A stretch of 64,000 nucleotides of DNA, from positions 1,813,245 through 1,877,244 of the forward strand of contig OY821638.1 of NCBI GenBank assembly GCA_963682105.1, written 5' to 3'. The notes under the pieces were generated by a model. It made no database searches. It had not been told where the DNA came from and saw only the letters and a program-made list of their open reading frames with translations. Below are positions 22,208 through 42,173 of the stretch, in pieces. The position numbers were made by a program, and so were the translations under genes. How positions within the stretch are numbered: position 1 is the first letter of the stretch; every line of letters starts with the position of its first letter. Source of the stretch: Smithellaceae bacterium (lineage in GTDB: Bacteria > Desulfobacterota > Syntrophia > Syntrophales > Smithellaceae).

Positions 22208-23590
22208 ATGAACATTATCGTCCTCAACGGCAGCCCCAAAGGCGATCTCAGCGTCACCCTTCAGTACGTCCGCTACGCGGCCCGAAAAATGCCGCAGCAT
22301 TCGTTTACGATCTTTCCCGTGGCCCAGACCATAAGGAAGATCGAAAAAGATGAAAAAGCGTTTGGCGAAATTCTCGACGCCATCGAACGCGCCGACGCCG
22401 TCTGGTGGGCGTTTCCGCTTTATTACCTGGTCGTATGCTCCCAGTACAAACGGTTTATCGAATTGATCTTCGAAAGAAAGCGAGAAGCGGCTTTTGCGGG
22501 AAAGTATGCGCTTTCCCTGTCCACCTCCGTCCACTTCTTCGATCACACGGCGCATAATTACATTCACGCCGTCTGCGACGACCTGCAGATGAACTACCTG
22601 GGTGCTTATTCCGCGGCCATGTACGACCTCATGCAAAGCAGAGAACGCAAACGCTGGCTGGCCTTTGCCGAAAATTTTGCCGACGCCGCTTCCCGAAAAA
22701 TCCCCACAGCCCGCGTCTACCCGCCCGTTGCGCCGTTGAATTTTAAATACATCCCGGGCGCTCCCGCAGCCCCGGTCGATACGGCGGGGAAAAAAATTCT
22801 GCTGATGAAAGACGGACAGTCGCCGTCCGGCAATGTCGATGCAATGGTTCAGACCCTGAGAGAGAACTTTCGGGGAGACATCGATGTCGTCAACCTGATG
22901 GACATCAACATCAAAGGCGGATGCCTGGGCTGCTGCAAATGCGGTCTGGACAACACCTGCGATTATGAAGGCAAGGACGGCTACATTGATTTCTACAATG
23001 AAAAAGTCAAAAAGGCGGACGTGATCGTCTTTGCCGGCGCAATTTTCGACCGCTATCTGTCGTCGCGCTGGAAGATGTATTTTGACCGCTCTTTCTTCAA
23101 CACGCACATTCCCACCTTGCAGAACAAACAGATTGCCTATCTGATTTCCGGCCCCCTGGAGCAGATTCCCAACCTTCGCCAGATGCTGGAAGCCTATGGG
23201 CAAATTCAGGATGCCAACGTCGCGGGGATCATCACGGATGAATCGTCAGACTCTCAACGGATCGACGCGCTCATCGCGGAATTCGCCCGCACCCTCGTCC
23301 GGACGGCAAAGGATCGGGCCTCCGTTCCCCTGACCTTTCTGGGCGTCGGCGGCAGGAAAATATTCCGCGACGAGATTTACGGCATGCTGCGTTTTACGTT
23401 TCAGGCGGATTACCGCTTTTTCAAACAGCACGGGCTTCTGGACTTCCCGCAGAAAAATTACAAAGTCCGCCGTCTGAACCTGCTGATGATGCTTTTAACC
23501 AAAATCCCGGCCTTCCGCCGGAAATATTTAAAAATCCTTAAAGAGCAAATGGTCAAACCACTCAAACAAGCCGCGGAGAATAAAGAATGA
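22208..23590 (+). CDS. tandem flavodoxin-like oxidoreductase; second half is iron-sulfur-flavoprotein-like
   Basis: N-terminal IIVLNGSPKG flavodoxin-fold signature. Second domain carries the compact CX2CX2CX5C motif (CLGCCKCGLDNTC). Confidence 0.6.
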   Translation: MNIIVLNGSPKGDLSVTLQYVRYAARKMPQHSFTIFPVAQTIRKIEKDEKAFGEILDAIERADAVWWAFPLYYLVVCSQYKRFIELIFERKREAAFAGKYALSLSTSVHFFDHTAHNYIHAVCDDLQMNYLGAYSAAMYDLMQSRERKRWLAFAENFADAASRKIPTARVYPPVAPLNFKYIPGAPAAPVDTAGKKILLMKDGQSPSGNVDAMVQTLRENFRGDIDVVNLMDINIKGGCLGCCKCGLDNTCDYEGKDGYIDFYNEKVKKADVIVFAGAIFDRYLSSRWKMYFDRSFFNTHIPTLQNKQIAYLISGPLEQIPNLRQMLEAYGQIQDANVAGIITDESSDSQRIDALIAEFARTLVRTAKDRASVPLTFLGVGGRKIFRDEIYGMLRFTFQADYRFFKQHGLLDFPQKNYKVRRLNLLMMLLTKIPAFRRKYLKILKEQMVKPLKQAAENKE

Positions 23591-24537
23591 AAAAGCCCAT
23601 CAAAATGGTTTTTCTGGATGCTGCAACGGTCGGCCATGTCGACAACCTTTCGGAGATTTCGTCGCTGGGCGATTACACAAACTATGAGATCACCATTCCC
23701 GCCGAGCGGATCGGTCGCATTCGGGGGCACAACGTCGTCGTCACCAACAAGGTGATCATCGACCGCGATGTCATGGATGCCTGCCCGGAACTGGAGTTGA
23801 TCGCCATCGTCGCCACCGGCATGAACAACGTCGATCTGGATTATGCCGCCCGAAAAGGAATTGCCGTCCGGAATGTCGCGGGCTACTCCACGGAATCCGT
23901 CACGCAATGCACCTTCGCCATGCTGTTTTATCTGCAAAACGCCTGCCGCTATTACGACGATTATGTCCGGTCGGGACAATACACATCCAGCCCCATCTTC
24001 ACGCACCTGGGCCGGGAATTCCGGGAACTGTCCGGCATGACCTTTGGCATCATCGGCATGGGAACTATCGGCCGCCGTGTCGCGCAGGTTGCCTCCGCCT
24101 TCGGCGCAAAAGTTGTTTATTACTCGACCTCGGGAAAAAATCTCGATGCGGCGGGCTGCTCTCATCTTCCGCTTCCGGAATTATTGCAGAGCGCCGATGT
24201 CGTCTCCATTCACTGCCCGCTCAACGATCAGACCAGAAACCTGATTGCCAAAGAACAGTTGGATAGAATGAAGCCGACGGCCTATCTTTTGAACATGGGC
24301 CGGGGCGGCATTGTGGATGAGGCGGCGCTGGCGCAGGCCATTGACGAAAACCGGATTGCCGGAGCGGGTCTGGACGTTCTAACCAAAGAACCCATCGCGG
24401 CGGACAGCCCGCTTTTGAACATTCGCAATAAAGAAAAGCTCTACATCACCCCGCACATCGCCTGGGCCGGCATGGAGGCCAGACGTGTGCTGATCGCGCG
24501 GACGGCGCAAAACATCAGGAGCCATTTCGGATTGTAA
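23587..24537 (+). CDS. D-isomer-specific 2-hydroxyacid dehydrogenase (glycerate dehydrogenase-like)
   Basis: GIIGMGTIGRRVA NAD fold. NMGRGGIVDE, ITPHIAW catalytic motifs. ATGA overlap with the upstream gene. Confidence 0.85.
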   Translation: MKKPIKMVFLDAATVGHVDNLSEISSLGDYTNYEITIPAERIGRIRGHNVVVTNKVIIDRDVMDACPELELIAIVATGMNNVDLDYAARKGIAVRNVAGYSTESVTQCTFAMLFYLQNACRYYDDYVRSGQYTSSPIFTHLGREFRELSGMTFGIIGMGTIGRRVAQVASAFGAKVVYYSTSGKNLDAAGCSHLPLPELLQSADVVSIHCPLNDQTRNLIAKEQLDRMKPTAYLLNMGRGGIVDEAALAQAIDENRIAGAGLDVLTKEPIAADSPLLNIRNKEKLYITPHIAWAGMEARRVLIARTAQNIRSHFGL

Positions 24538-24992: not shown

Positions 24993-25727
24993 ATGAAGCT
25001 GTTCAAAGCAAAAGAAGAAAAAAATTTAATATCCTTATTAACCAGGACCAGCGATGAATCCGGCATTTACCTGGAAGAGCTGCACGGCCTGTTATTCGGA
25101 CTGGCCATTACGCCGGAGGTCATTCCGGCGGAAGAATGGGTGCCGCTGATCTTCGGCGGAGAACCGGCGTTTGATAATGATCCGGAGGCCGAAACCTGTT
25201 TGGAAAGCCTGATCGCCGTTTACGAACGCATGCTCAATGACGGACGCAAAGGCAAGCTCACGTTTCCTTTCAATTATGATGCAATCACCAATGATGAACT
25301 GATGCTGATTGACGGCTGGACATACGGACTGTTTATGGCTTTATCCCTGCGGCCCGCTCTCTGGGGCATGGGCAGAGAATATTCCATAAAAGAAATAGAA
25401 GAATTACCCGGCGACGTGATTGAAGTCATGGACGCTTACAGTGTCATTATCTCCATTGCCGTCCCGGAAGAAATGGAAGAAGGATTCAAAGAGGTGATGG
25501 ATACGGAATCCTTAAACCGCGATGAAATGATGGACATGTTTTACGAACAGTTGCCTTTTGCCGTGGAAATCCTGCAAGAGCACGGCCTGAAAATCCGGGA
25601 GGCAAACTCAACGGGCAAACGGCCATCCGCCCCGCGCAAGACTATCCGCAAAGAGAAAACCGGCCCCAACGATCCCTGCCCCTGCGGCAGCGGCAAGAAG
25701 TATAAAAAATGCTGCGGCGCAAACTGA
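24993..25727 (+). CDS. UPF0149/YecA-like protein with C-terminal SEC-C zinc motif
   Basis: C-terminus [18 protein letters not shown]-terminal [12 protein letters not shown] resembles the YgfB/YecA family. Confidence 0.7.
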
Positions 25728-25734
25728 CATAAAA

Positions 25735-26300
25735 ATGGTGGATAGAATTAAGGTTCAAGGCGCAAGGTTCAAGGTCCAAGGTCAAACGTGGATGGATAAA
25801 AGGCTATGGGCTAAAGCTCGTAGCTCATAGCTCATGGCTAGTGGATTGTGTCCTCCGCCGGAAACTGTGTCGCAATTCCATATACGTCATTCCGGACAAG
25901 CGAGCGCAATCCGGCTTGTGCCATTCAGGGTGAATCCAGCATTATTAATAGTTCCTGGATGCCGGCTTTCGCCGGCATGACAACTTCAGGCTTGTTTTCA
26001 TAATTGCGACACAGTCTCTTGGCGGAAGTGGCGCGAAGCGCCGGAGGTGGAAAGCGCAGAGATCAGAGCACATAGCTGGTGGCTCGTAGTGAATAGTGGA
26101 TGGTGAATAGACAGTTGCTGTTTTTTAATCCCGAAGGGATTCAACGTTTATTGATCATCCGGCCATTTCAACATCTGCGACCCCGTCGGGGTCGAACATA
26201 GAGACTTGAAAATTTCTATAAACGTGCAACTCCTTCGGAGTTGAGTTCTGAGCGGATGATCTCCCGGCCGGCGCGTCACCCCGGCGCAGGCCGGGGTCCA
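25735..26300. repeat. mosaic intergenic repeat cluster (inverted orientation)
   Basis: Reverse-complement copies of the heptamer, CTACGAGC and CCTCCGCC modules plus GC hairpins. 26150-26260 is the reverse complement of 15620-15717. Confidence 0.9.
25861..26018. mobile_element. ~158-bp TIR-bounded hairpin element (MITE-like), copy A
   Basis: Left end GAAACTGTGTCGCAATT and right end AATTGCGACACAGTCTC are inverted repeats (16/17). The interior holds two GTCATKCCGGC...GCCGGMATSCAG-type hairpins. It sits inside the CCTCCGCC/GGCGGA palindrome. Confidence 0.55.
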
Positions 26301-26699
26301 GACAAGCAAAACCTTATGCTTCGCCATACACAAGATCAGCGTCAACAACAGGAATACAATTATCAATTGCTAAAATAATAAATTGGAATATAATCCGCCT
26401 TACCTGATCCTCAGGTCGCCAACACATATTCGTTTTCTGGTTCCGGAGATGCGCAATGAGATTCATGGTTGAAAATCTTTTAAGCGGCAATCCATCAGTT
26501 ATTTCTTCCGATAATCAAAGAAATATTACTACCCCTAAAACAAGCGATCAATCCCGATCAAAAGCGGATAGAAAAGTTTCGGATAAAGTACACAAAGGCG
26601 GAACTGCATGAAAATCAATAGCGGTGAGTTACAGGAAGATTCAGTTATTTCCATTTTGGAAATAACTGCCGACAACGGAAATAATTTTTTTCTGGTAGG

Positions 26700-26830
26700 A
26701 CACCGGATGGGGGTGCAGGAGGAGTAGAATGGTGGATAGTGAATAGTGGATGGTGGAAAATGTCCTCCGCCGGCGGAGGTGGCGCGAAGCGCCGGAGGTG
26801 GAAAGCTTGTAGCGCGAAGTGAATCGTGGA
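26700..26830. repeat. mosaic intergenic repeat (inverted), containing an uninterrupted CCTCCGCCGGCGGAGG site
   Basis: 26764-26779 CCTCCGCCGGCGGAGG followed by TGGCGCGAAGCGCCGGAGGTGG. Flanked by GTGGATGG/GTGAATAG units. Confidence 0.85.
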
Positions 26831-27023
26831 TGGAGAATGAAAATGAGTAACAAAAGCTGAATTAGGTAATAACCTAAGGACCGACCGAGCAAAATGCCCG
26901 AAACTGATGTCAGGGGAGAAATATACCAGAATGGAATGAGGCCACCGGTTCAGAAGAAACAATAATAATCAATATTCTTGTAGGACATCAAATGTCCGAT
27001 CAGATTTGTTATGATGAATCAAA

Positions 27024-27560
27024 ATGAGCAATTTGAGAAATAGCAATAAGCTTGTTTTCATTGACGTGGAAACAACCGGGCTCGATCCGGCCAAAGGACA
27101 CAGGATTATTGAAATCGGGGCAATCGCCATGGAAAACAACCAAATAATCAGCGAATTCAAGAGTCTTGTTCAAGTCAGTTACCCCATCCCCCGGCATGTT
27201 TCTAAAATCCACGGCATCACCAATAATATGCTGGCCGGTCAGCCGACACCGGAAGAAATTTATCCTAAATTCAAAGATTTCATATCCGACAGCATACTGG
27301 TTGCGCATAATGCCGAGTTTGATGTAGGCTTTTTACGGTCGGAATTTAGCAGATTAAATCTCCACCTCCAAAACCCAAGTATTTGCACCCTGAAAATAAG
27401 CCGCAGGCGCTACCCGCGCCTGCCGAATTATAAATTGATCACGGTTTACAGGCATCTTGTCGGTCATCAACCCGCCGATGCAAAAAAACACCGCGCATTG
27501 GATGACGCCCGCATGGTCGCGGCCATCTGGCAGGCAATGGAGGGGAAAATAGATGAATGA
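27024..27560 (+). CDS. DEDDh 3'-5' exonuclease (DnaQ/DNA polymerase III epsilon-like)
   Basis: Exo I FIDVETTGLDP, Exo II VAHNAEFDVGFL, Exo III HRALDDARM. The stop (27558-27560) overlaps the cas3 ATG (27553). Confidence 0.85.
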   Translation: MSNLRNSNKLVFIDVETTGLDPAKGHRIIEIGAIAMENNQIISEFKSLVQVSYPIPRHVSKIHGITNNMLAGQPTPEEIYPKFKDFISDSILVAHNAEFDVGFLRSEFSRLNLHLQNPSICTLKISRRRYPRLPNYKLITVYRHLVGHQPADAKKHRALDDARMVAAIWQAMEGKIDE

Positions 27561-30225
27561 ACAACGTCTGAAAAAAGAACTGTCAAATCTCTGGGCGAAG
27601 ACAAAAAAAAATGGTGAAGCAGGGTGGCATCCGCTGATTCTTCACATGCTGGACGTAGCCGCGAGTGCTGACGCAATTCTGGAGCGCGAACCTAAATCAA
27701 CGCGTATGAGGATGGCTACAATCTTAGGTATGCAATGGGAAGATGCCCGGCCATGGATTTTAATCGTTTTGGCCTGTCACGATCTGGGAAAATCAAGTCC
27801 GGGTTTTCAGTACAAATGGCCGGAGGCACCCCAGACATGTCTGTCATTTCCACGAAGCCCGAATACAGAAATGAACCACGCTTTCGTCAGTCAAATTGCA
27901 CTTTCAGAGTTATTACAGGAAAGGGGCTGGCCTCAAGAGTTAGCAGTGTTAACGGCTGATGCAGTTGGATGTCACCATGGGACTAGGGCGACTCCAACTA
28001 CCATTAATCATCTGATGGGCGACAGACGTGCTATTGGAAATGATGATTGGACAAAAGTGCGTATAAGCTTTGCGGAAACGCTGCTGGATGTTTTTAAGCC
28101 TTCGCGAATGCCAACCAAAGAAACTCTTACCGGCCCCGACTTCATGCTGTTGGCGGGACTCACAAGCTTTGCTGACTGGATCGGATCCAATGAAGATTGG
28201 TTTCCTTTCGGTACGCCGGAAGATTGTGAGGATCTGCAGGCGTGGTTTCAAAAGCGTAAAGGCTGTGCAGTCCAGGCACTAAATTCAATCGGATGGGAAT
28301 ATAGAACCCCGCTGTCCAAAAAACAAAAAACTTTCGCGCAGGTATTCGGCTTTACTCCTCGTCCATTACAGCAGGCGGTCGCTGACGCTCTTTCTGGTAT
28401 AAAAGAACCAGCCATTCTACTGGTTGAAGCCCCCATGGGCGAAGGCAAGACCGAGGCAGCATTCTTCACGCATCTTGAGTTGCAATGCCGATTTGGGCAT
28501 CGTGGCCTGTATGTGGCCTTGCCGACCAAAGCGACCGGTAACGCAATGTTTAAACGCACGTTGGACTTCATTTGTAAACAAGGCACTGATCGAAAGCTGG
28601 ATATGCAACTGTTGCATGGCGGAACTGTTCTCAACGACACCTTCCAGAATCTGCGGATTTCTGGAATCCACGATCCCGAAACAGGCGGTGAGATAAGAGT
28701 GGGGGAATGGTTCACCAACAAAAAAAGGGCGCTCCTTTCAGAATACGGCGTAGGAACGGTGGACCAGGCAATTCTCCCCATTCTGCCTGTGCGACATAAC
28801 TTCGTGCGTCTGTGGGGCCTTGCAAACCGTGTCGTAGTATTCGATGAGATTCACGCGTATGACGCTTACACGGGTACGCTTCTGGTTCATCTATTGCGCT
28901 GGCTCCTGGCATTGGGATCGTCCGTGGTGTTGCTTTCGGCGACACTGCCACCTCATATTCGTCGCGAGTTGGCGAAAGTGGTAAGTGCCGACATACCGGA
29001 AATAGAAGCGGAATATCCGCGCCTCTCTATCTACCGCGCCGACGGAGTGGACCAGATCCATTTTGAGGCCGATCCGAACCGTCGATTGACGCTAAGTTTA
29101 CAGGGGATTCCACACGACCTGCCAAGTATGTATTCAGCACTGAACGAACACCTTATAAACGGCGGTATGGGGCTAGCACTTGTCAATACAGTGCAACGGG
29201 CACAAGACCTGTACCGACTTTTCCCTGAGGGCGCGCCAATAGAGCGTGAAGGTCATCGGGTCGGCAAGCGGCTGCCCGATGGTACGGAAGTATTCCTCTT
29301 TCATGCGCGGTTTCCGGCTGATCGGCGACAAAAGCGTGAGGATCATGTTTTGGCGAACTTCGGTGTTGGCGGAAATCGATACGGGCGTAAAATTCTCATA
29401 GCAACGCAGGTTGCGGAACAGAGTCTTGATTTGGATTTTGACGTAATCGCCACTGATCTTGCGCCCATTGACCTCATCTTGCAGCGTGCAGGACGTCTGT
29501 GGCGTCATGAGCGGGAATCCCGGCCAGTTTCCGGCCCCCCGACACTCTTGGTGGCGGGTCTTGTTGGCGACGCGCCGCCATCATTCGGAAAACCCTTGTG
29601 GTGGGGAAAGGTATATCGTGAAGATGTCCTGTTGCGCACCTGGTGCCTTCTTCGGGAAGGGCAAAGGGCGAACTTGGTGTTGCCGGATGAGATCGACGTC
29701 CTAGTACAAGCGGTTTACGAAGAACAGGTTGAAATACCGGAATTACTCCAAGAGAGATTAAACAGCGCGTTGTTGAATGGGGAAGGAGAAGCCATAACCA
29801 AGCGTGGACAGGCAAATCAGGCGATTATTGGCTTTCCCGACGATGCATCATGGAACGATCCGGCAAGGTTTGTTCTTTTTGATGAAGATGAACCCGGCGT
29901 ACATCGAACGCTCATGGCCCAGACCAGGCTTGGTGAAGACTCGGTCGTTGCTATTCCGTTATGGCGTGAAGACGGATTCAGCACTGAAACTACGCCTGAC
30001 TTTGCCCAAGCCAAACGGTGGTTCCTGCGGGCAATCAGTCTTTCACGCAAAGGCGTGGTCAAGAAACTCAAAACGTCTGGGGTGCCGGAAGGCTGGAACA
30101 AATCGCTACTCTTGCGTAATTGCTTCCCACTGATGCTGAATGTCCAGGGATGCTGGACTGAAGATACAAAAGTGCGTTTGGATGACGCTCTGGGTTTACT
30201 TTACGAGTCAAAGGAGGAAGAATGA
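27553..30225 (+). CDS. cas3: CRISPR-associated helicase/nuclease Cas3 (type I-E)
   Basis: N-terminal HD domain (HMLDVAA...LACHDLGK), helicase motifs APMGEGKTEAA, VVFDEIHAYD, SATLP, ATQVAEQSLDLDFD. First of the I-E gene order. Confidence 0.95.
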   Translation: MNEQRLKKELSNLWAKTKKNGEAGWHPLILHMLDVAASADAILEREPKSTRMRMATILGMQWEDARPWILIVLACHDLGKSSPGFQYKWPEAPQTCLSFPRSPNTEMNHAFVSQIALSELLQERGWPQELAVLTADAVGCHHGTRATPTTINHLMGDRRAIGNDDWTKVRISFAETLLDVFKPSRMPTKETLTGPDFMLLAGLTSFADWIGSNEDWFPFGTPEDCEDLQAWFQKRKGCAVQALNSIGWEYRTPLSKKQKTFAQVFGFTPRPLQQAVADALSGIKEPAILLVEAPMGEGKTEAAFFTHLELQCRFGHRGLYVALPTKATGNAMFKRTLDFICKQGTDRKLDMQLLHGGTVLNDTFQNLRISGIHDPETGGEIRVGEWFTNKKRALLSEYGVGTVDQAILPILPVRHNFVRLWGLANRVVVFDEIHAYDAYTGTLLVHLLRWLLALGSSVVLLSATLPPHIRRELAKVVSADIPEIEAEYPRLSIYRADGVDQIHFEADPNRRLTLSLQGIPHDLPSMYSALNEHLINGGMGLALVNTVQRAQDLYRLFPEGAPIEREGHRVGKRLPDGTEVFLFHARFPADRRQKREDHVLANFGVGGNRYGRKILIATQVAEQSLDLDFDVIATDLAPIDLILQRAGRLWRHERESRPVSGPPTLLVAGLVGDAPPSFGKPLWWGKVYREDVLLRTWCLLREGQRANLVLPDEIDVLVQAVYEEQVEIPELLQERLNSALLNGEGEAITKRGQANQAIIGFPDDASWNDPARFVLFDEDEPGVHRTLMAQTRLGEDSVVAIPLWREDGFSTETTPDFAQAKRWFLRAISLSRKGVVKKLKTSGVPEGWNKSLLLRNCFPLMLNVQGCWTEDTKVRLDDALGLLYESKEEE

Positions 30226-31742
30226 GACGATTTAACCTGATTGATGAAAAGTGGATACCAGTGCGATTTCCCAATGGGACGCTTGACGAACTGGGTATCC
30301 GCGACACCCTGCTGCGATCCAAGGAAATCGCGGCTATCGAAGATCCGTCGCCGCTGGTGGTAGCAGCCCTGCATCGCTTTTTACTGGCGGTATTGTACCG
30401 GGCATTAGAAGGGCCAACCGACATTGATCAAGCCAAGGCGTTTTTTAAAACAGGATTGCCGGATGATAAAATCGAGGCCTATCTTGAAAAGTGGCGAGAT
30501 CGTTTCTGGTTGTTTGATGAGAACTACCCATTTGGGCAAAATCCGAATATCCCGAAGGATAAGATTGAACCTTGGACGAAGTTAACGGCTGAATTTAACG
30601 CAACATCCAACAAGGTTCTCTTTGATCACACTAATACCAAAAAGCCCGGAACTAGGACGCCGAAGGAATGTGCTCGTTGGTTGCTCTCTACCATGACCTT
30701 TTCGATTGCTGGCGGCAGAGGCTATTACCCGTCACCATCACCGAATGCGATGATGTGCATTCCATTGGGGCGGAATTTTCAAGAAACGCTTTGTTACAGC
30801 TTGGTGCCGTACCCAAATCGAAATATAATGCTCGGGGATTCGGCGTTGTGGGAGCGTGAACCTACTGCACTACCACTTAGCATTCCAAAGCAGATGGCCA
30901 CTGGATATGCAGATCTCTACACATGGCAATCGCGAATGATCCGCCTTGAGGAACTGTCCACAGGTGAAGTGGAAGTAATGAGATTTGTTGCTGGACTTGG
31001 TTTTGAAAACCCATCGAGCAACCCTGATCCGATGCATCCCTATAAACTTGATAAAACCTACGGAAAACTGTCTGTCCAGTTCAGAAAGAATCGTGGAGCA
31101 TGGAGAGACTATGACTCATTACTCCCTGATAATGGCGATCTAGCACCACTGACAATTCAGAATGCACTGCGATTGGGGGGAAACAAAGCGGGCAGTCTGC
31201 CAGAATCGATTCTGGTACTTGGTCTAAAATATGAACCCCCAAACGCTAACTTGGAGTTCTGGCGCATGGAATGTTTTTCTTTACCTAAGTCGCTGGCCGG
31301 TGTGCATTGTATCAGAACAGATATTAGGCAGTTTCTCAACGATGCCGAGAATGCCCAAAAAGTCCTCTGGACAGCATGTAGTTCATTTGCACGAGATTTA
31401 ATTAGTCGAGGGGACAAAAGGACTGTTAGCAAGAAGGACATCAGCGGCTTTGTAGACCAGATGCCGGTGAACGCCTCGTATTGGTCCACACTTGAATCCC
31501 GCTTCCATGAAGTCCTGCGAGCGTACACGCTTGACTGTGACCCCGATGATATCCGCTGTCAATGGCTGAAGTCTGTTCGTGATATACTGCTGTCCGCTTG
31601 GAGTCAACACAGCACGTCGGTATCCACTGGTGACGCATGGGCTATCCGGGCACTTGTGAAAGCAGAAAGGCCGGTCCGACGTAAATTTAAAGAACTAAAC
31701 GATGAAATTTTAAAACTCGAACCACATAAGGAGGTCGCATGA
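30222..31742 (+). CDS. casA: Cascade large subunit Cas8e (Cse1/CasA)
   Basis: 506 aa. N-terminal FNLIDEKWIPVR is typical of Cse1. ATGA overlap with cas3. Position in the I-E operon. Confidence 0.9.
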   Translation: MRRFNLIDEKWIPVRFPNGTLDELGIRDTLLRSKEIAAIEDPSPLVVAALHRFLLAVLYRALEGPTDIDQAKAFFKTGLPDDKIEAYLEKWRDRFWLFDENYPFGQNPNIPKDKIEPWTKLTAEFNATSNKVLFDHTNTKKPGTRTPKECARWLLSTMTFSIAGGRGYYPSPSPNAMMCIPLGRNFQETLCYSLVPYPNRNIMLGDSALWEREPTALPLSIPKQMATGYADLYTWQSRMIRLEELSTGEVEVMRFVAGLGFENPSSNPDPMHPYKLDKTYGKLSVQFRKNRGAWRDYDSLLPDNGDLAPLTIQNALRLGGNKAGSLPESILVLGLKYEPPNANLEFWRMECFSLPKSLAGVHCIRTDIRQFLNDAENAQKVLWTACSSFARDLISRGDKRTVSKKDISGFVDQMPVNASYWSTLESRFHEVLRAYTLDCDPDDIRCQWLKSVRDILLSAWSQHSTSVSTGDAWAIRALVKAERPVRRKFKELNDEILKLEPHKEVA

Positions 31743-32257
31743 ATGGATTCATTGAATGGCTGGAGGGTCTGAACGAGAAAGACACCAGGGTGCGGGCGGT
31801 ACTAAGACGCAGCCTTGCTTTTGATCCGGGGCGATTTGCGCCTGCTTACCCATATGTCGAGCCATTTCTTAAAGATGAAGAAAACTTTTGGAAGCGGGAT
31901 ATGTTCTATCTTGTGGCTGGTCTCTGGGCCAGCCATTGGCGGTTCGGCAGGAGTGGTGTGCCGTTGACATTCGGAAAGGCATGTGCGGCGCATCAGGTAG
32001 CGAGTAGTTCCACAAACACAGAGAGACGCTTTATTACTCTTCTGGATGCTGACACCGATCAATTGCCGCATCGCTTGCGCCAGATGGTTGCTCTTCTCAA
32101 AGAGCAGACTATCGATTTCGGCGATCTGTTGAACGGCCTTTTATACTGGAATGACGACCGGAAGCGCACACAGAACGGCTGGGCGCGCGACTTTTATCGC
32201 AACCTGAACCTTGAAACAAAAACCAAACCCAATATTGATAAGGAGATCAGCGAATGA
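31739..32257 (+). CDS. casB: Cascade small subunit Cse2 (CasB/Cas11e)
   Basis: 172 aa. AVLRRSLAFDPG motif. ATGA overlaps on both sides. Position. Confidence 0.85.
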   Translation: MNGFIEWLEGLNEKDTRVRAVLRRSLAFDPGRFAPAYPYVEPFLKDEENFWKRDMFYLVAGLWASHWRFGRSGVPLTFGKACAAHQVASSSTNTERRFITLLDADTDQLPHRLRQMVALLKEQTIDFGDLLNGLLYWNDDRKRTQNGWARDFYRNLNLETKTKPNIDKEISE

Positions 32258-33414
32258 AAACAATTATCGAGATTCATGCCCTGCAGAATTTTGCCCCGTC
32301 AAACTTAAACCGCGACGACACAGGCGCGCCCAAAGATGCCCTGTTCGGTGGCACCCGTCGTGCACGTGTATCCAGCCAGTGCCTCAAACGTTCGATTCGG
32401 CAGTATTTTCTGGGATTAGTGGCACGAAACACAATAACAGCAAATGATGTTGCTCTCCGCACTAAACGCATTCTGGATGCTCTCGTCAAGTCTCTGGTCG
32501 AAAAGGGACGTGTTGAAGATGACGCAAAAGAAAAAGTGCGTTTGGCATTGGCAGCTATGGAACTTGCAATAAAGGACGACAGTAAGAGCGAGTGCCTCCT
32601 TTTTTTGGGAAAACGCGAAATTTCCAATATTGCCAATGTGATCCATGATAAGTGGGACACAATCAACGCACCTGATACCGCACCGACAGAAGGGAAAAAA
32701 CCTGGCAAGGCCAAGAAGCAGGCAGCTCAGAGCGCTGATCCTGAATTAAGAAAATCCCTTGAAAAAGTTTTCAATGGCGGAAAGGCTCTTGATGTGGCGC
32801 TCTTTGGACGCATGCTTGCCGACATGCCCGAGAAGAATCAGAATGCCGCCTGCCAAGTTGCTCATGCTATTTCGACGCATTCCGTTGAGCGTGAGTTCGA
32901 TTTTTATACCGCTGTGGATGATCTCAAACCCGAGGACAACGCGGGCGCCGATATGATGGGTACGGTGGAGTTCAATTCGGCCTGTTTCTACCGTTATGCC
33001 GTTGTGGATTGGGAAAAACTTGTGGAAAATCTCCAGAATGACCGGGAATTGGCAACCAAGGGACTACGGGCGTTTCTGGAGGGTTTTGTAGTAGCTGAAC
33101 CCACCGGCAAGCAGAATACCTTTGCAGCTCACAATCCACCGGAATTTGTGGCTGTCTCGCTGCGTCACAATGCAGCACCACGCAATCTTGCTAATGCTTT
33201 TGAGTTAGCTGTGCGCACGAAAAAGGACGAGTCACTGACCAGAAAATCAGCGGAAGAGCTTGTCCAAAAAGCAAATTCGCTGCAGGTTGCATTTGGCGGG
33301 GCGGAACAAACATTTGTTCTCAATCTCATTGATGCCAAGTTGAATGGCTTGGGAACGCCTTTGCCGACATTGAAAGATCTTCTTGATAAAATTATCTTGG
33401 CCATACAGGAGTGA
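32254..33414 (+). CDS. casC: Cascade backbone subunit Cas7e (Cse4/CasC)
   Basis: IEIHALQNFAPSNLNRDDTGAPKDALFGGTRRARVSSQCLKRSIR is the hallmark Cas7e N-terminus. Confidence 0.95.
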   Translation: MKTIIEIHALQNFAPSNLNRDDTGAPKDALFGGTRRARVSSQCLKRSIRQYFLGLVARNTITANDVALRTKRILDALVKSLVEKGRVEDDAKEKVRLALAAMELAIKDDSKSECLLFLGKREISNIANVIHDKWDTINAPDTAPTEGKKPGKAKKQAAQSADPELRKSLEKVFNGGKALDVALFGRMLADMPEKNQNAACQVAHAISTHSVEREFDFYTAVDDLKPEDNAGADMMGTVEFNSACFYRYAVVDWEKLVENLQNDRELATKGLRAFLEGFVVAEPTGKQNTFAAHNPPEFVAVSLRHNAAPRNLANAFELAVRTKKDESLTRKSAEELVQKANSLQVAFGGAEQTFVLNLIDAKLNGLGTPLPTLKDLLDKIILAIQE

Positions 33415-33417
33415 CCT

Positions 33418-34116
33418 ATGCCCACATTGTTGCTTCGTTTGGCGGGTCCCATGCAATCATGGGGCACCACCAGTCGTTTTGACCAACGTGATACCGGTAA
33501 AGAGCCTAGCAAGTCAGGTGTTGTTGGACTTCTGGCAGCAGCATTAGGAATTGATCGAGAAAACTGGATAGATCTGGCTCCCCTGACCCGTCTATCTATG
33601 GGCGTCCGTCACGACCGATCAGGCGTACCCAAGCGGGATTACCAGACAGCAGGATGCGCGGCAACTGACACCATCATCAAGGCAGATGGAACAAAGGCCA
33701 AGGATGGGGGTGTCGTTTCACAGCGTTTCTACATTGCGGACGCCTGCTTTTTAGTGGGACTTGAAAGCAGTGACAGCACCTTGCTAAAAAAGATTCACGC
33801 TGCTTTGCAAAACCCCGTCTGGCCACTTGCTTTAGGCCGGAAATCCTATGTGCCAACCGAGCCGGTCTGGATGAATGATGGGCTTCAGCATGCTCCGTTA
33901 ATGGAAGCATTTACTCGTTGGCCTTGGATTGCAAAACAACGGAAATGGGAAGACTTGCCCGAGAAGCTTTTGGTCTCATATGAGTCTATGGATGGTTCTG
34001 GTGTGCTCAAGATGGACCAACCACTCTCGTCATTTGCTGAACGACGATTTGGATCACGATTCGTGCGTTCGGAATGGATTCCCTTCCCTCAGGAGGTGGC
34101 CCATGTTTCTGCATAG
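33418..34116 (+). CDS. casD: Cas5e (CasD)
   Basis: LLLRLAGPMQSWGTTSRFDQRDTGKEPSKSGVVGLLAAALG is the hallmark Cas5e N-terminus. Confidence 0.95.
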   Translation: MPTLLLRLAGPMQSWGTTSRFDQRDTGKEPSKSGVVGLLAAALGIDRENWIDLAPLTRLSMGVRHDRSGVPKRDYQTAGCAATDTIIKADGTKAKDGGVVSQRFYIADACFLVGLESSDSTLLKKIHAALQNPVWPLALGRKSYVPTEPVWMNDGLQHAPLMEAFTRWPWIAKQRKWEDLPEKLLVSYESMDGSGVLKMDQPLSSFAERRFGSRFVRSEWIPFPQEVAHVSA

Positions 34117-34777
34117 GATACATATTGATCCGCGTTGCCGGGAAGCTCGTCGCGATCTTTCCGATCCCTACCAGCTTCATTCCACACTGTGTAGGGCCTT
34201 CAGCGCGCCGGACAAGAAATGCCCTGAATCTGAATTCTTGTGGCGGCTTGAGACTGAAACGGATTCAGCCGGTTACCCGCGCATTCTTGTTCAAAGCAGA
34301 ACAATGCCGGACTGGTCAAGCATTAGCGTGAAGGGATGGCTTGCACAGGCCGATCCGGCCATTAATCTGAAAGAGCGGCTCAAACTCGATTCGCTCAACG
34401 TTGGGCAAAGTTTTCGTTTCAGGCTGCAAGCTAACCCATGTATTACTAAAAACGGCAAACGTTTGGGATTGCTGCAATTGGCAGAGCAAGAAGCATGGAT
34501 AAACCGGCAAGGGACACAGCATGGTTTTTCACTACCGCAATTGACCCACTTTGATCTTTCAGAACCTGCACAGCAACAGGTTGATGTGCAGGTTACTCAA
34601 GCACATATGCTTCGCGGCAGAAAACATTCCGGTAATGACGTAAGGATATTTTCGGTGCTCTATGATGGAATGCTAACAGTTAACGAACCGGAGAAATTCT
34701 GTCATGCTCTGCAAACGGGTATTGGTCATGGGAAAGTCATGGGGCTGGGCCTCTTGTCAGTTGCACCAATTCGTTGA
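34103..34777 (+). CDS. casE: Cas6e (CasE) pre-crRNA endoribonuclease
   Basis: ATG 34103 preceded by AGGAGG (34091-34096). MFLHRIHIDPRCREARRDLSDPYQLHSTLCRAF and C-terminal GIGHGKVMGLGLLSVAP. The track ORF start at 33929 is an upstream extension overlapping cas5e. Confidence 0.9.
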   Translation: MFLHRIHIDPRCREARRDLSDPYQLHSTLCRAFSAPDKKCPESEFLWRLETETDSAGYPRILVQSRTMPDWSSISVKGWLAQADPAINLKERLKLDSLNVGQSFRFRLQANPCITKNGKRLGLLQLAEQEAWINRQGTQHGFSLPQLTHFDLSEPAQQQVDVQVTQAHMLRGRKHSGNDVRIFSVLYDGMLTVNEPEKFCHALQTGIGHGKVMGLGLLSVAPIR

Positions 34778-34967
34778 ACAAGTAACAAAGCAGAACCCAC
34801 TATTATTTTTGTTCCATGTAAGGTACCGGCTATGGAAAAAAATGTTATTTTTAAAAGGAAAAATCAGCAAAGCAGAGCGTGACAATTTATCACAAGTTCA
34901 CGCTTTCTGCCCCCGATAGAAAAAACGGGTAATCGATTGTGGCGCATTATAAAAGAAAGTACAAAAC

Positions 34968-35111
34968 ATGACCAATTCTTTGGCGTTTTTTGAAGGTTAC
35001 AAAATTCGGCGGCATTACGATGAGCAGGCAGAAACCTGGCGCTTTTCTGTCATTGATATTATCCAGGTACAGGCAAAGATGGCTGAAATGCTGAGGACCA
35101 TCGAGAGGTGA
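34968..35111 (+). pseudogene. N-terminal fragment (47 codons) of a Bro-N domain gene
   Basis: MTNSLAFFEGYKIRRHYDEQAETWRFSVIDIIQV matches the FE.xxIRR.YD...E.W.FSV.D Bro-N start, then diverges and stops. Full family members are ~250-280 aa (recalled). Confidence 0.5.
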
Positions 35112-35136
35112 TTACGAATAATCAGGAGGACTCGTA

Positions 35137-35421
35137 ATGGAAAAAGATTTATTGGTTAGATTGCATGCACAATTTGAAAGCATCGTCAATGTCTGGCCGG
35201 ATTCACCGCTGGAATTCTGGTATGCCCGTGAATTGCAAGGCGCTTTGGGATATGACCGATGGGAAAATTTTAAAAAAGTCATAGATAAAGCGGTTAACGC
35301 CTGCCAAACCATGGAGGTTAACGTTTCAGACCATTTTCGTGACGTCACGAAAATGGTCAAAATAGGTTCGGGCACAGAACGACCGATAGACGACATCCTG
35401 AAATGGAAGACGAAGCCATGA
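35137..35421 (+). pseudogene. N-terminal fragment (94 codons) of a DinD-like (DNA-damage-inducible protein D) gene
   Basis: EFWYARELQGALGYDRWENFKKVIDKAVNACQ...HFRDVTKMVKIGSGTERPIDDI matches the DinD N-terminal region. The reading frame ends about one third of the way into the usual length. Confidence 0.55.
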
Positions 35422-35516
35422 AGAGCAACGATGAGAGGGCAACTGCCAAATAATATTTGTCAATTCAATTATACGTCAGGGCGCTGTAAAGAAATTCTTT
35501 ACAACTGAACAGGGGT

Positions 35517-36122
35517 GTGATGGGAACAAGAAAAGATTTAGAAAAGCCGGAAGAATCACGGATGGTTGTCTTTCAGAAAAAAAACATTCGGCGCACATTG
35601 CATAATGACGAGTGGTGGTTTGCTATTGTGGATGTGGTTGCAGTCTTGACCGATTCGAAAAACCCATCAGGTTACATCAAGGATATGCGTAGGCGTGACG
35701 CGGAGTTATCCAAAGGGTGGGGGCAAATTGCCACCTCCCTTTTGCTGCAAACCGAAGGTGGAAATCAAAAGGTTAATTGCGCCAACACGGAAGGCCTTTT
35801 CCGAATCATCCAGTCCATCCCCTCCCCCAAGGCCGAACCCTTCAAGCGCTGGCTCGCGAAAGTGGGTTATGAACGCGTGCAGGAAATTGAAGACCCGGAA
35901 CTGGCAACCAAACGGACAAAAGCGCTTTATCGGTCCAAAGGCTATTCCGACGATTGGATTGAAAAACGCATGCGCGGGATTGCCATTCGTGCTGAACTTA
36001 CCGACGAATGGAAAAATCGAAAAGTCGGACTTCAAACCGAATACGCTATTCTGACGGCTGAAATTTCCAAAGCCACGTTTGGCCTGACACCATCGGAGTA
36101 TAAAGAAAATGGTCGTGTCTAA
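35517..36122 (+). CDS. Bro-N domain protein (phage antirepressor-like), apparently C-terminally truncated
   Basis: NIRRTLHNDEWWFAIVDVVAVLTDS..., CANTEGLFRIIQSIPSPKAEPFKRWLAKVGYERVQEIEDPE, AILTAEISKATFGLTPSEYK. Ends 48 nt before cas1, where relatives continue for ~70 more residues (recalled). Confidence 0.65.
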   Translation: MMGTRKDLEKPEESRMVVFQKKNIRRTLHNDEWWFAIVDVVAVLTDSKNPSGYIKDMRRRDAELSKGWGQIATSLLLQTEGGNQKVNCANTEGLFRIIQSIPSPKAEPFKRWLAKVGYERVQEIEDPELATKRTKALYRSKGYSDDWIEKRMRGIAIRAELTDEWKNRKVGLQTEYAILTAEISKATFGLTPSEYKENGRV

Positions 36123-36170
36123 AGAAAACTATCTGGATGCGCCGGAAAAAAGAAAACGATTGGAGAAGAA

Positions 36171-37380
<1,210 letters not shown>

Positions 37381-37452
37381 AATTCGGTACCAATTTTTTG
37401 GTGGAATTTGGTTCTTTGAAAATTTAATAAAGAATCAATAAGTTAGAAGAAG
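37381..37452 (+). promoter_or_regulatory. CRISPR leader (72 bp, AT-rich) between cas2 and the first repeat
   Basis: Position, AT-richness, and degenerate repeats at the opposite end of the array define this as the leader-proximal end. Confidence 0.75.
37433..37445 (+). promoter_or_regulatory. candidate IHF binding site in the leader
   Basis: AATCAATAAGTTA fits WATCAANNNNTTR exactly. Lies 8-20 nt upstream of repeat 1. Confidence 0.45.
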
Positions 37453-40400
37453 TATGTTCCCCACACACGTGGGGATGAACCGATCGGCGGAACAACACAG
37501 ACCGCCCGCGATATATGTTCCCCACACACGTGGGGATGAACCGCGCACAATCTCCATTGTGATTAAACCTTTTCTATGTTCCCCACACACGTGGGGATGA
37601 ACCGCGGGTTGTGAGAGGAGCAGTATCATTGCTGGTATGTTCCCCACACACGTGGGGATGAACCGGCGATGTCTTCCACTTACCCGCAGCGCTCCAGATG
37701 TTCCCCACACACGTGGGGATGAACCGGCGAATCTCTCCAACATGGTGGAGACTACGTAATGTTCCCCACACACGTGGGGATGAACCGGCATTTGCCAACT
37801 GTAGCCGTTTTGATGCGCCATGTTCCCCACACACGTGGGGATGAACCGTCCTTGTAGTGGTCGAAATACCGCGAGAGAAGATGTTCCCCACACACGTGGG
37901 GATGAACCGACTTAACCAGATAGCGGGAGAGGACAGTATGCATGTTCCCCACACACGTGGGGATGAACCGGCATGGCGTCCATCACAATTGAAATCGAGT
38001 ACATGTTCCCCACACACGTGGGGATGAACCTTTGCCCGGGAAGAGCACGTCCGGCCGGACCATCATGTTCCCCACACACGTGGGGATGAACCAAACCGGG
38101 TGTAAGCTGCCTTCAACTTGATGGATGTTCCCCACACACGTGGGGATGAACCGAGACAGTTACCTATTACGACCGCATTGAGGTTATGTTCCCCACACAC
38201 GTGGGGATGAACCGGCGCAATCAAGCTGCTGTCCTGCACTGGCCGCATGTTCCCCACACACGTGGGGATGAACCGTACAGGCGGAAGAAATCAAGGAGAT
38301 ACGGAGGATGTTCCCCACACACGTGGGGATGAACCGAAATCAAGGAGATACGGAGGACGATCGACCGTATGTTCCCCACACACGTGGGGATGAACCGGCG
38401 CTCAACTTCAGCTTTGCTTTTTGATGTATATGTTCCCCACACACGTGGGGATGAACCGGCTTTGCTGGCCATAGAAGTCCAGGACTTCGTATGTTCCCCA
38501 CACACGTGGGGATGAACCGCGCAGTACGCCGAAATGCTCAAGAAGGACATTATGTTCCCCACACACGTGGGGATGAACCGTGGAATGCCAGAGTCTGATG
38601 CAGAGCAGTGGGATGTTCCCCACACACGTGGGGATGAACCGCCGAACTTGCTGCCGTCCGTGAGTTACAGGTTATGTTCCCCACACACGTGGGGATGAAC
38701 CGCCGAACTTGCTGCCGTCCGTGAGTTACAGGTTATGTTCCCCACACACGTGGGGATGAACCGAAATCTCTGAAGCGTGGATCAAAACGCAGCCGATGTT
38801 CCCCACACACGTGGGGATGAACCGATGTTGTTGGCGGCCGTACCATTCACCCTTGCATGTTCCCCACACACGTGGGGATGAACCGCTCTTGCCAGGGTAT
38901 AGTACTCCTTTTAATCCATGTTCCCCACACACGTGGGGATGAACCGTTGAAATGACTTTATCGGAAACCAGAACTGATATGTTCCCCACACACGTGGGGA
39001 TGAACCGGCTATTTATGAAGGGCAAATCAATATTGATCGATGTTCCCCACACACGTGGGGATGAACCGGCAGTGGAGAGCGACGGCTATGCCCTGCAATA
39101 ATGTTCCCCACACACGTGGGGATGAACCGAAATTTTGGCGTCAGAGTTAACCGGAATTAAAATGTTCCCCACACACGTGGGGATGAACCGATGGCACGGA
39201 CGTATTTGAGGCCGCCGTTTTTATGTTCCCCACACACGTGGGGATGAACCGTTGACGAACGATCAGTTTAGCCACGCCGGCCGATGTTCCCCACACACGT
39301 GGGGATGAACCGGCCATATTCAATAGATTATCGGCCATTCGCATATGTTCCCCACACACGTGGGGATGAACCGCTATATAATAAGAAAGAAGCGTTGCAG
39401 TTATTATGTTCCCCACACACGTGGGGATGAACCGGTATTGCATGACGATTTTGAGTATGTTATACAATGTTCCCCACACACGTGGGGATGAACCGGCACT
39501 TGTTTTTTACCGGAGAGAACCACGACAATGTTCCCCACACACGTGGGGATGAACCGCTCAGATAATCGGTTACGTCTTTGGCGCTTTTATGTTCCCCACA
39601 CACGTGGGGATGAACCGACTTTGCGGACAGAGCGGCGGCCGAGGCCGAGATGTTCCCCACACACGTGGGGATGAACCGATTGCTTATTGAAACACACGAG
39701 CATGTATGAAATGTTCCCCACACACGTGGGGATGAACCGCCTATAAAATGCCGATGCGGATCAGGCTGATCATGTTCCCCACACACGTGGGGATGAACCG
39801 ACCTGAACATCTACGGCGCAAACGGATCAGGGATGTTCCCCACACACGTGGGGATGAACCGCTTGCTAAGGTTCTGTTCAAGTATTTCCTTTGATGTTCC
39901 CCACACACGTGGGGATGAACCGGACATCTGCCAGCTTCTTCCCCTCTTCGGCATATGTTCCCCACACACGTGGGGATGAACCGGCTGGCAGATGGGCGCG
40001 CCTGGCCTATCCGATATGTTCCCCACACACGTGGGGATGAACCCGAGGGGAAGATTGACGAACTCGTCGTGCAGAAATGTTCCCCACACACGTGGGGATG
40101 AACCGGTAATCTGGATCGAACCCCCTGCCAATTAAATATGTTCCCCACACACGTGGGGATGAACCGAGAATAGACTTGCAGAAATCATTATCAAGTGCAT
40201 GTTCCCCACACACGTGGGGATGAACCGGTTAGCCGCTGCCGTGGGCAGAGTAATTGCTAATGTTCCCCACACACGTGGGGATGAACCGCAAAATTCCTTC
40301 TGCCTCTGCGTCCGTGTTAAATGTTCCCCACACACGTGGGGATGAACCGCTTATGGCCCTATACAATGCGATTCCTGGCGAATGTTCCCCACACACGTGG

Positions 40401-41506
40401 GGATGAACCGGCAAATGGGCTATATTTTACATCCCCGTACGCATGTTCCCCACACACGTGGGGATGAACCGTCTGATCCGTGAAATTATAGGATGATACG
40501 GTCATGTTCCCCACACACGTGGGGATGAACCGCAAAACAGTGTATTCCGTACCGTTGACATTTAATGTTCCCCACACACGTGGGGATGAACCGTCCAGCC
40601 CTGCGTCATCATGCCCGGTACCCATATGTTCCCCACACACGTGGGGATGAACCGTTTGCTTCGCTGGATCCGAAGGCCGACCGGAAATGTTCCCCACACA
40701 CGTGGGGATGAACCGCGACAACGATCAGTATTCAGGATTCGAGTTTAATGTTCCCCACACACGTGGGGATGAACCGAGGCATCAATATACGCCCGCCGTG
40801 CCGTTGCAATGTTCCCCACACACGTGGGGATGAACCGGTACTTATCTTTTATATATGGCGCGGATATTAATGTTCCCCACACACGTGGGGATGAACCGTA
40901 AAATTCCCTCGGCCTCTGCGTCCGTGTCAAATGTTCCCCACACACGTGGGGATGAACCGGTAGCGGCTCGGTGCGGGTTTATGCGGGAAATATGTTCCCC
41001 ACACACGTGGGGATGAACCGTCCTTGTGGCTTCTCAGGCTGAGATATCTGAGATGTTCCCCACACACGTGGGGATGAACCGACTCAATTTCATTTTCAAA
41101 ATCTACGATTAATATGTTCCCCACACACGTGGGGATGAACCGCCTGAATTCCTCTGCTGTGCGCTTACAACGGGATGTTCCCCACACACGTGGGGATGAA
41201 CCGGCCTCTGTGTTCGTGATCTAAATCAAAAGCCATGTTCCCCACACACGTGGGGATGAACCGGCTTTTTCACTATTCCCCTAGGCGATCAGCGTATGTT
41301 CCCCACACACGTGGGGATGAACCGGATTTTATCATGGGCGCGGCGGGCCGGCCGGCATGTTCCCCACACACGTGGGGATGAACCGGCAAAACAAAACATA
41401 TCACTTTTGGTGCAATATGTTCCCCACGCACGTGAGGACATCAGGGAAATGTACATACAGAAATTGGCTGAAATAATATGTTCCCCACGCACGTGAGGAC
41501 ATCAGG
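37453..41506 (+). CRISPR. type I-E CRISPR array, 67 repeats / 66 spacers
   Basis: 29-nt repeat ATGTTCCCCACACACGTGGGGATGAACCG (compare E. coli GTGTTCCCCGCGCCAGCGGGGATAAACCG). 61-nt period counted repeat by repeat from 37453. Spacers are 32 nt, with two of 31 and two of 33. The last two repeats (41417, 41478) are degenerate (ATGTTCCCCACGCACGTGAGGACATCAGG). Confidence 0.98.
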
Positions 41507-41537
41507 TCGCGCCCCTCGCGGGCGCGTGGATATTATC
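41506..41537 (+). repeat. solitary type I-C-like CRISPR repeat relic (or terminator hairpin)
   Basis: GTCGCGCCCCTCGCGGGCGCGTGGATATTATC versus the recalled I-C consensus GTCGCGCCCCGCACGGGCGCGTGGATTGAAAC. Same GTCGCGCCCC...GGGCGCGTGGAT core and stem. Confidence 0.45.
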
Positions 41538-41979: not shown

Positions 41980-42130
41980 AATCTCCCCTGACCCCTCTTT
42001 AAAAAAGAGGGGAACCGACGCTATGCTCAATCTCCCCTGCATCCGCTTAAAAAAAGGGGAGCCGACGCAATACGCAATCTCCTCTGACCCCTCTTTTACC
42101 CTGAAGGGCACACGAAAAAAGAGGGGATTC
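41980..42130. repeat. three tandem ~48-bp hairpin units (AATCTCCCCTGACCCCTCTTT-AAAAAA-GAGGGGAACCGACGC...)
   Basis: Units start at 41980, 42029 and 42076. Each contains a CCCCTC/GAGGGG stem. Confidence 0.8.
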
Positions 42131-42173
42131 ATAAAGGTCTCTTGATGTTCATCCCTGGTGTTGCGCGGTACAC

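Follow-up and report, generated by a model that had tools for sequence, protein, structure and literature searches.

A stand-alone DEDDh exonuclease gene conserved at the head of type I cas operons, with a possible role in prespacer trimming

DEDDh exonuclease domains fused to Cas2, as in the type I-E 'trimmer-integrase' proteins of Megasphaera NM10 (8FY9-8FYD) and Streptococcus thermophilus DGCC7710 (8H18/8H2F), trim the 3' overhangs of prespacers and remove the protospacer-adjacent motif (PAM) (PMC10284694; PMC10470216). In the type I-E system of Escherichia coli trimming is carried out in trans by the unlinked host enzymes DnaQ and ExoT, as summarized from earlier work in PMC10284694 and PMC8616872, and stand-alone DEDDh exonucleases are described as widespread CRISPR ancillaries in the account of Wang et al. 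2023 (PMC10284694, citing Makarova et al. 2020). Here we describe a stand-alone gene of this type in a 64,000-nucleotide stretch of a Smithellaceae bacterium genome (GCA_963682105.1, contig OY821638.1, positions 1,813,245 to 1,877,244 of the forward strand; hereafter the window). It heads a type I-E operon and overlaps cas3, its family is conserved at the head of type I cas operons, and its product could serve as an operon-encoded prespacer trimmer.

Translation of the open reading frame (ORF) at 27024-27560 yields a 178-residue protein containing the segments LVFIDVETTG, VAHNAEFDVGF and KHRALDDA, as had been noted in an earlier reading of this DNA (hereafter the earlier note). These supply the Exo I D-x-E signature (D14 and E16 within FIDVETTG), the Exo II aspartate (D100 within AHNAEFDVGF) and the Exo III H-x4-D signature (H156 and D161 within HRALDDA), the last of which assigns the protein to the 'h' rather than the DEDDy subtype; all five residues are invariant in an alignment with 32 relatives. 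The DnaQ/RNase_T profile search that the earlier note had proposed returned a match over the whole domain of Pfam RNase_T (PF00929; E 5e-40, 138.2 bits against a cutoff of 24) and a match to the NCBIfam 'dnaq' family TIGR00573 (115.7 bits against a cutoff of 71.5), along with a weaker match to the Pfam Rv2179c-like exoribonuclease family. The AlphaFold2 model (predicted local distance difference test score, pLDDT, 91.7) superimposes on the E. coli epsilon subunit (2GUI) and the S. thermophilus Cas2-DnaQ domain (8H2F) with a template modeling (TM) score of 0.85 each, and on the exonuclease domains of epsilon, PolC and DinG and the Cas2-fused DnaQ domains with TM scores of 0.80-0.85. By fold and residues the 27024-27560 product is a catalytically intact DEDDh exonuclease, for which enzymatic activity is predicted.

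The epsilon subunit of DNA polymerase III (DnaQ proper) was considered as an identity for this protein and set aside. Its scores against the epsilon equivalog families fall below their cutoffs (TIGR01406, 123.4 against 222.7; NF004316, 113.5 against 196; NF004963, 99.4 against 245), and its chain terminates at residue 178, directly behind the Exo III helix (H157-177), with no C-terminal extension; the match to the 231-residue TIGR01406 model correspondingly stops at model position 171. The C-terminal tail of E. coli epsilon is required for binding the alpha subunit. An epsilon function is hence unlikely, judging from these scores and the protein length.

The exonuclease gene lies within the following locus:

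27024-27560, + strand: stand-alone DEDDh (DnaQ-like) 3'-5' exonuclease, 178 residues, by motifs, profiles and structural model
27553-30225, + strand: cas3 (HD nuclease and helicase), 890 residues; Pfam Cas3_HD 3.8e-45 and Cas3-like_C_2, NCBIfam cas3_core
30222-31742, + strand: cas8e/cse1; Pfam CRISPR_Cse1 1.1e-96
31739-32257, + strand: cse2/cas11; Pfam CRISPR_Cse2 2.8e-29
32254-33414, + strand: cas7e; Pfam Cas_CT1975 6.4e-122
33418-34116, + strand: cas5e; Pfam Cas_Cas5d 1.4e-51, TIGR01868
34103-34777, + strand: cas6e, 224 residues; Pfam CRISPR_assoc 5.5e-52 from residue 59 of the ORF 33929-34777
36171-37094, + strand: cas1e; TIGR03638 7.6e-117, 93-98% identical to Cas1 of loci L183 and L185
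37075-37380, + strand: cas2e, 101 residues, with no fused domain; Pfam Cas_Cas2CT1978 (PF09707) 1.3e-37
37454-41506, + strand: CRISPR array, 67 repeats of 29 nt with mostly 32-nt spacers, its leader adjoining cas2

Thus, the type I-E complement is complete, with cas3, cas8e/cse1, cse2, cas7e, cas5e, cas6e, cas1e, cas2e and the array all present. At the exonuclease/cas3 junction (ATAGATGAATGAACAA) the exonuclease stop codon TGA (27558-27560) and the cas3 start codon ATG (27553) fall within an 8-nt overlap, read as AAA ATA GAT GAA TGA in the exonuclease frame and as ATG AAT GAA CAA in that of cas3, while the cas3/cse1, cse1/cse2 and cse2/cas7 junctions each have a 4-nt overlap. The earlier note had described this 8-nt overlap and the tight coupling along cas3-cas8e-cse2-cas7e correctly, and likewise a short Cas2 free of any nuclease (the Cas2 domain alone accounts for its 101 residues) and the absence of cas4. 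The exonuclease has its own gene, 9.5 kb upstream of cas2, and the scanned ORFs of the 64-kb window include neither a Cas4 nor a second DEDDh gene.

We examined the neighborhoods of 13 distinct relatives of the exonuclease (45-89% identity), a small sample biased to long contigs. In 12 of them the gene heads a type I cas operon or lies close to its start. Represented among these 12 are a single I-C operon, a single I-F operon, a disrupted locus and, for type I-E, at least four effector cassettes that diverge from one another:

P0002 (89%), P0017 (75%), P0027 (76%) and P0072 (60%): directly before a type I-E cas3
P0083 (57%), P0082 (56%), L095 (53%) and L016 (45%, across a 547-nt gap): directly before a type I-E cas3
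P0090 (58%): at the head of a type I-C operon, exonuclease-cas3-cas5c-cas8c-cas7, again overlapping cas3 by 8 nt
L015, Desulfobacterium sp. N47 (54%): heads a type I-F operon, exonuclease-cas1-cas2/3-csy1-csy2-csy3
P0096, Anaerolineae contig (58%): disrupted locus, with 5 kb of other defense-type genes and then a Cas3 helicase
P0063 (61%): no cas genes, among AMP-ligase, YhhN, YceD and fab genes

The window shares with L001, L005, L008, L011, L095, L178 and L186 an exonuclease stop codon that overlaps the start of cas3 or lies directly against it. The background set was drawn from the locus scans, in which genome contigs were searched with an alignment (A1) and metagenome contigs with a single protein, and whose matches are driven by generic DEDDh motifs; among the matches listed, the only family members are L015, L016 and L095, nearly all the rest being distant homologs. 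None of the 157 loci of these more distant DEDDh homologs (33-43% identity; 1.8 Mb) among the matches listed encodes type I-E, I-C or I-F Cas proteins. Matches in a plasmid collection were all below 41% identity and included no family member. The earlier note held that its proposal would fall if orthologs were not enriched next to cas genes; with 12 of 13 against 0 of 157, they are enriched. The linkage of the family to type I cas operons is, on this comparison of gene neighborhoods, real rather than due to chance, and the gene qualifies by context as a true CRISPR accessory. Given that the family also heads I-C and I-F operons, its constant partner is the operon head or Cas3, and not a type I-E system lacking Cas4.

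Some further features of the relatives may be recorded here. The gene for P0063 (L176/L177, 5001-5528) lies just upstream of a YhhN-YceD-fabD-fabG-acpP-fabF series; in the window a YceD-acpP-fabF cluster is found at 60387-62922 (- strand), 33 kb from the CRISPR locus, and the window ends 1 kb past YceD. In L013 a 45-residue ORF following the exonuclease was considered as a cas3 remnant and rejected, the resemblance being too weak.

Comparison with the Cas2-DEDDh fusions shows that the fold and catalytic motifs (TM 0.80-0.85), a Cas4-less subtype and a location inside the cas locus are common to both, and the chemistry of 3'-overhang trimming is plausibly shared. Unlike those fusions, the gene here is separate, lies at the opposite end of the operon and is coupled to cas3, with a Cas2 of 101 residues, and its family additionally serves I-C and I-F loci. 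The exonuclease shows 29-32% identity to the Cas2-fused DEDDh domains (E 1.5e-16 for 8FY9 and 5.4e-18 for 8H18) as against 40% to the Thermotoga PolC exonuclease domain (2P1J; 4.1e-29), which points to a recruitment probably independent of that of the Cas2 fusions. By the comparison with Cas2-DnaQ domains that the earlier note recommended, the exonuclease is not a detached Cas2-fused domain, and membership in the trimmer-integrase family was rejected, since the gene is separate, Cas2 is unfused and there is no specific sequence relationship. No Cas2 or other Cas domain is fused to the exonuclease in its 120 closest relatives, and a chimeric query (the exonuclease joined to the first 300 residues of Cas3) recovered only Cas3 proteins; as that search scored 8000 candidates alone, the absence of fusions is weak evidence.

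Like the stand-alone DEDDh ancillaries, the gene is encoded in a cas operon and its product matches their PADLOC profile (PDLC01247, DEDDh, 'CAS-I..VI; associated') at 4.4e-41. This profile, however, also fires on any dnaQ-like gene, in contrast to which the present family is a distinct clade marked by its first-cistron position and its stop/start overlap with cas3; for the DEDDh profile, 2-4 copies per Salmonella Typhi genome have been reported (PMC7698835). The arrangement, which the earlier note placed outside the canonical I-E architecture, does consist of a separate gene on the cas3 side, but it is less unusual than was supposed, since DEDDh is already a catalogued cas-associated profile. 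We found neither this exonuclease clade nor its conserved coupling with cas3 described in the literature searched, although the kind of gene has been catalogued. Because genes of this kind are already in cas-associated profile sets, the present finding refines the existing picture rather than changing it.

The E. coli enzymes DnaQ and ExoT, from which the mechanism proposed below is taken, are likewise DEDDh enzymes acting in trans in a Cas4-less I-E system; they are, however, housekeeping proteins unlinked to cas, unlike the operon-encoded exonuclease here, which also lacks the epsilon C-terminal tail. Cas4, the RecB-like nuclease of types I-A/B/C/D/G, II-B and V that type I-C systems normally possess, offers an analogy of role, being a dedicated cas-encoded nuclease for processing prespacer ends, as we propose for the exonuclease; it differs in having an unrelated fold and an endonucleolytic, PAM-specific mechanism. 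That one relative heads an operon of the normally Cas4-bearing type I-C implies that the exonuclease and Cas4 need not be alternatives.

DNA comparisons between the window and related loci reveal repeated recombination immediately around the gene. Relative to L183/L005, which have the same flank, the exonuclease is 78% identical in DNA and 75% in protein, with homology extending up to 27548, five bases before the cas3 ATG; from cas3 to cas6e the DNA is unalignable (Cas3 36%, Cas7 39% protein identity), and homology returns in the Bro-N gene between cas6e and cas1 (77% protein identity) and in cas1 (98% over 167 residues). The comparison with L181/L182 gives 89% identity for the exonuclease and 75-93% for Bro-N, but only 33% for Cas3. 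With L185, homology begins 67 nt upstream of the exonuclease and continues through the whole operon (exonuclease 76%, Cas3 87%, Cas1 93%), while the upstream genes, a WYL regulator and IS110, are unrelated. The breakpoints fall at 27541-27548, that is, 5-12 nt before the cas3 ATG, and on the other side 53-67 nt before the exonuclease ATG (L001, L008); the gene has thus kept its place at the head of cas operons while recombination took place to either side of it. Exonucleases of this one family are followed by at least four Cas3 types, mutually 32-36% identical, and the Cas1 proteins of the window, L183 and L185 agree at 93-98%, with Cas3 ranging over 35-87%. On two further contigs (L011, 6001-6531; L012, 871-1401) one and the same exonuclease protein, P0072, has different cas3 genes after it, whose products are 28% and 65% identical to that of the window and whose DNA diverges within the first cas3 codons; this pair represents either a very recent cassette exchange or a chimeric short contig.

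These alignments indicate that the whole cas3-to-cas6e effector cassette was exchanged, with the exonuclease on one side and Bro-N and cas1-cas2 on the other being retained. They also indicate that the exonuclease is not co-adapted to a particular Cas3, given that 89% identical exonucleases precede 33% identical Cas3 proteins and that P0072 precedes two cas3 genes. The comparative data thereby offer a sharp example of modular evolution by swapping of effector cassettes.

In light of this context, we propose that translation of the exonuclease, as the opening cistron of the cas3-Cascade transcript, is coupled to that of Cas3, and that the enzyme would strip single-stranded 3' overhangs from prespacers bound by Cas1-Cas2. 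Among these prespacers would probably be fragments generated by Cas3 during interference, as in primed adaptation, and the job would be the same as that performed in cis by the Cas2-DEDDh fusions and in E. coli by host DnaQ and ExoT. We assign a probability of about one half to an operon-encoded prespacer trimmer that acts in trans on substrates including Cas3-derived fragments; its substrate and partner, and any influence on the acquisition of spacers, are here what we infer from genomic context. The coupling to cas3, together with presence in I-E, I-C and I-F, all of which are known for primed adaptation, suggests the inclusion of Cas3-derived fragments among the substrates. The retention of the exonuclease (75%), Bro-N (77%) and Cas1 (98%) where Cas3 is 36% identical likewise speaks for a trimmer, as do the signs in the array, described below, of adaptation that appears to have been active. 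To our knowledge, many CRISPR systems lack Cas4, and the sizing of precursors has been worked out only for the Cas2-DEDDh fusions and the E. coli host enzymes. If the proposal holds, a naturally unfused, operon-encoded trimmer would provide a clean system for testing trimming in trans, and would reveal which partner (Cas1-Cas2 or Cas3) recruits it and whether the products of Cas3 are channeled into primed adaptation.

Several observations weigh against such a role. The exonuclease is coupled to cas3, 9 kb from cas1-cas2, and not to the adaptation genes; its sequence does not diverge in step with either Cas1 or Cas3; the Cas2-fused domains (29-32%) are no nearer to it than those of PolC and epsilon (29-40%); and no fusion to any Cas protein was seen in either the 120 closest relatives or the chimeric search. 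One relative with 61% identity, P0063, has no cas genes within 5 kb. Finally, the family also heads an operon of type I-C, a subtype normally with Cas4, which weakens the reasoning that it substitutes for Cas4; host exonucleases nevertheless still trim the non-PAM end in Cas4 systems. A more specific possibility, which we regard as unlikely, is that the exonuclease is an exchangeable partner of Cas3 across I-E, I-C and I-F, kept stoichiometric by the coupling and turning the products of Cas3 unwinding into integration-ready prespacers. Were this true, it would constitute a dedicated link from interference to primed adaptation, not previously described as a separate cas gene.

The chief rival to a trimmer is a helper of Cas3 in interference, whereby the exonuclease would digest from its 3' end the strand nicked and unwound by Cas3, or other 3' flaps, and so complete the destruction of the target instead of serving adaptation. 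Such a helper would explain the gene order: cas3 is the constant neighbor across I-E and I-C, usually with an overlapping stop and start, the gene after cas1 in the I-F operon encodes a Cas2/3 fusion, and Cas3 translocates 3'->5', leaving a free 3' single strand. We nonetheless consider it doubtful. The occurrence of 89% identical exonucleases with 33% identical Cas3 proteins, and of an identical exonuclease before two cas3 genes, is a lack of co-variation that argues against a specific co-adapted complex; moreover, neither the 120 closest relatives nor the chimeric query yielded a DEDDh-Cas3 fusion, and in the I-F operon the adjacent gene is cas1.

Less probable still is a purely positional linkage, in which a lineage-specific housekeeping or repair exonuclease of Syntrophales-like bacteria happens to sit beside a hotspot of cas exchange. 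Between the window and L183 the exonuclease (75%) does diverge much like the flanking UPF0149 gene (68%), while the cassette up to Bro-N/cas1 has been replaced, and P0063 (61%) is surrounded by housekeeping genes (AMP-ligase, YhhN, YceD, fabD-fabG-acpP-fabF), the nearest 5 kb being free of cas genes. Yet the gene moves together with cas operons into unrelated flanks, at least seven in number (L008/L185, L011, L175, L178, L186, L015, L095), homology begins just 53-67 nt before its start, it accompanies I-E, I-C and I-F alike, its translational coupling is conserved, and it falls below the epsilon cutoffs and lacks the epsilon tail. A role directed at RNA (trimming of CRISPR RNA (crRNA) 3' ends, or degradation of transcripts or R-loop RNA) is very improbable: the Pfam family is RNase_T, with the weaker match to the Rv2179c-like exoribonucleases, and some DEDDh enzymes (RNase T, oligoribonuclease) do act on RNA, but the protein is matched best, in sequence as in structure, by DNA proofreading domains (the exonucleases of PolC, epsilon and DinG), and we know of no requirement for 3' trimming of I-E, I-C or I-F crRNAs.

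The region upstream of the exonuclease contains the following features:

24993-25727, + strand: UPF0149/SEC-C-motif gene, a conserved upstream neighbor; Pfam UPF0149 1.3e-15, SEC-C 1.5e-09
25737-26688, no strand assigned: approximately 950-nt non-coding insertion relative to the orthologous locus L005/L183, by DNA comparison
26983-27015, + strand: palindrome GGACATCAAATGTCC (26983-26997) followed by TATGAT (27010-27015), a candidate operator and -10 box

The palindrome and TATGAT lie in the last 50 nt 5' of the ATG and are kept in the window, L001 and L008 despite differing upstream genes; this fits a regulated promoter for a transcript that would start at the exonuclease. A sigma-70 scan of the upstream region gave weak sites alone, not usefully above the shuffled expectation. 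The non-coding DNA of 1.3 kb reported by the earlier note 5' of the exonuclease measures 1296 nt (25728-27023), with no + strand ORF of 60 or more residues and no Rfam match, and no Rfam match occurs anywhere across 25000-42500. Its further claim that the exonuclease is the first gene of the cas3 unit gains support from the coupling conserved in relatives and from the upstream palindrome and -10-like box.

Most of this space is occupied by the insertion, whose edges at 25736 and 26689 are contiguous in L005 (at 5758). It is full of short direct and inverted repeats, among them D1-D4, a 17-nt inverted repeat (25861-25877/26002-26018) and repeat blocks such as TAGTGAATAGTGGATGGTG, present twice, and GGCGGA(A/G)GTGGCGCGAAGCGCCGGAGGTGGAAAGC, also present twice. 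The insertion could represent a mobile element of small size, non-autonomous in kind, or a cluster resembling repetitive extragenic palindromic (REP) sequences. The UPF0149/SEC-C gene matches the PADLOC candidate PDC-S12 at 2.5e-19 and is 68% identical in protein and 76% in DNA to the gene at the same position in L005-7/L183. In those loci a WYL regulator precedes the UPF0149/SEC-C gene, which is itself upstream of the exonuclease; the window has no WYL gene, and 23587-24537 encodes a 2-hydroxyacid dehydrogenase.

The 1.4-kb gap between cas6e and cas1 (34778-36170) contains genes that were absent from the earlier note:

35137-36122, + strand: Bro-N domain genes, comprising a fragment (35137-35421) and a 201-residue ORF (35517-36122); Pfam Bro-N, PADLOC PDC-S13 8.6e-80

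The same slot is filled in L181 (8530-10684), L182 (8531-10530) and L183 (18022-19982), with Bro-N proteins 74-93% identical even where Cas3 is 33% identical. In relatives a RhuM-family gene follows Bro-N, and in L013 (4970-6004) the exonuclease comes immediately after a RhuM gene. The window retains a shortened Bro-N gene and has lost RhuM by deletion. The PADLOC entries that these genes match, PDC-S13 and PDC-S05 (1.3e-154), are both classed as 'phage defence candidates'. The Bro-N/RhuM genes may represent one more accessory conserved in these loci, or else a defense or mobile element embedded there.

In the CRISPR array the last two repeats (ATGTTCCCCACGCACGTGAGGACATCAGG; 41417-41506) are degenerate, identifying that end as the old, leader-distal one and confirming the leader beside cas2 (37381-37453). 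The neighboring spacers 14 and 15 (38276-38368) derive from protospacers that are shifted by 12 nt along one strand, spacers 19 and 20 (38642-38734) are identical, and spacers 47 (40289-40320) and 57 (40899-40930) are variants of one protospacer. The duplicate, the 12-nt-shifted pair and the variant pair would fit acquisition, possibly primed, that drew repeatedly on the same targets, and adaptation at this array appears to have been active. Beyond the array, between it and a SpoIIE-type phosphatase gene, three tandem-spaced copies of a 36-nt hairpin-like element (AATCTCCCCTGACCCCTCTTTAAAAAAGAGGGGAAC) occupy 41980-42111.

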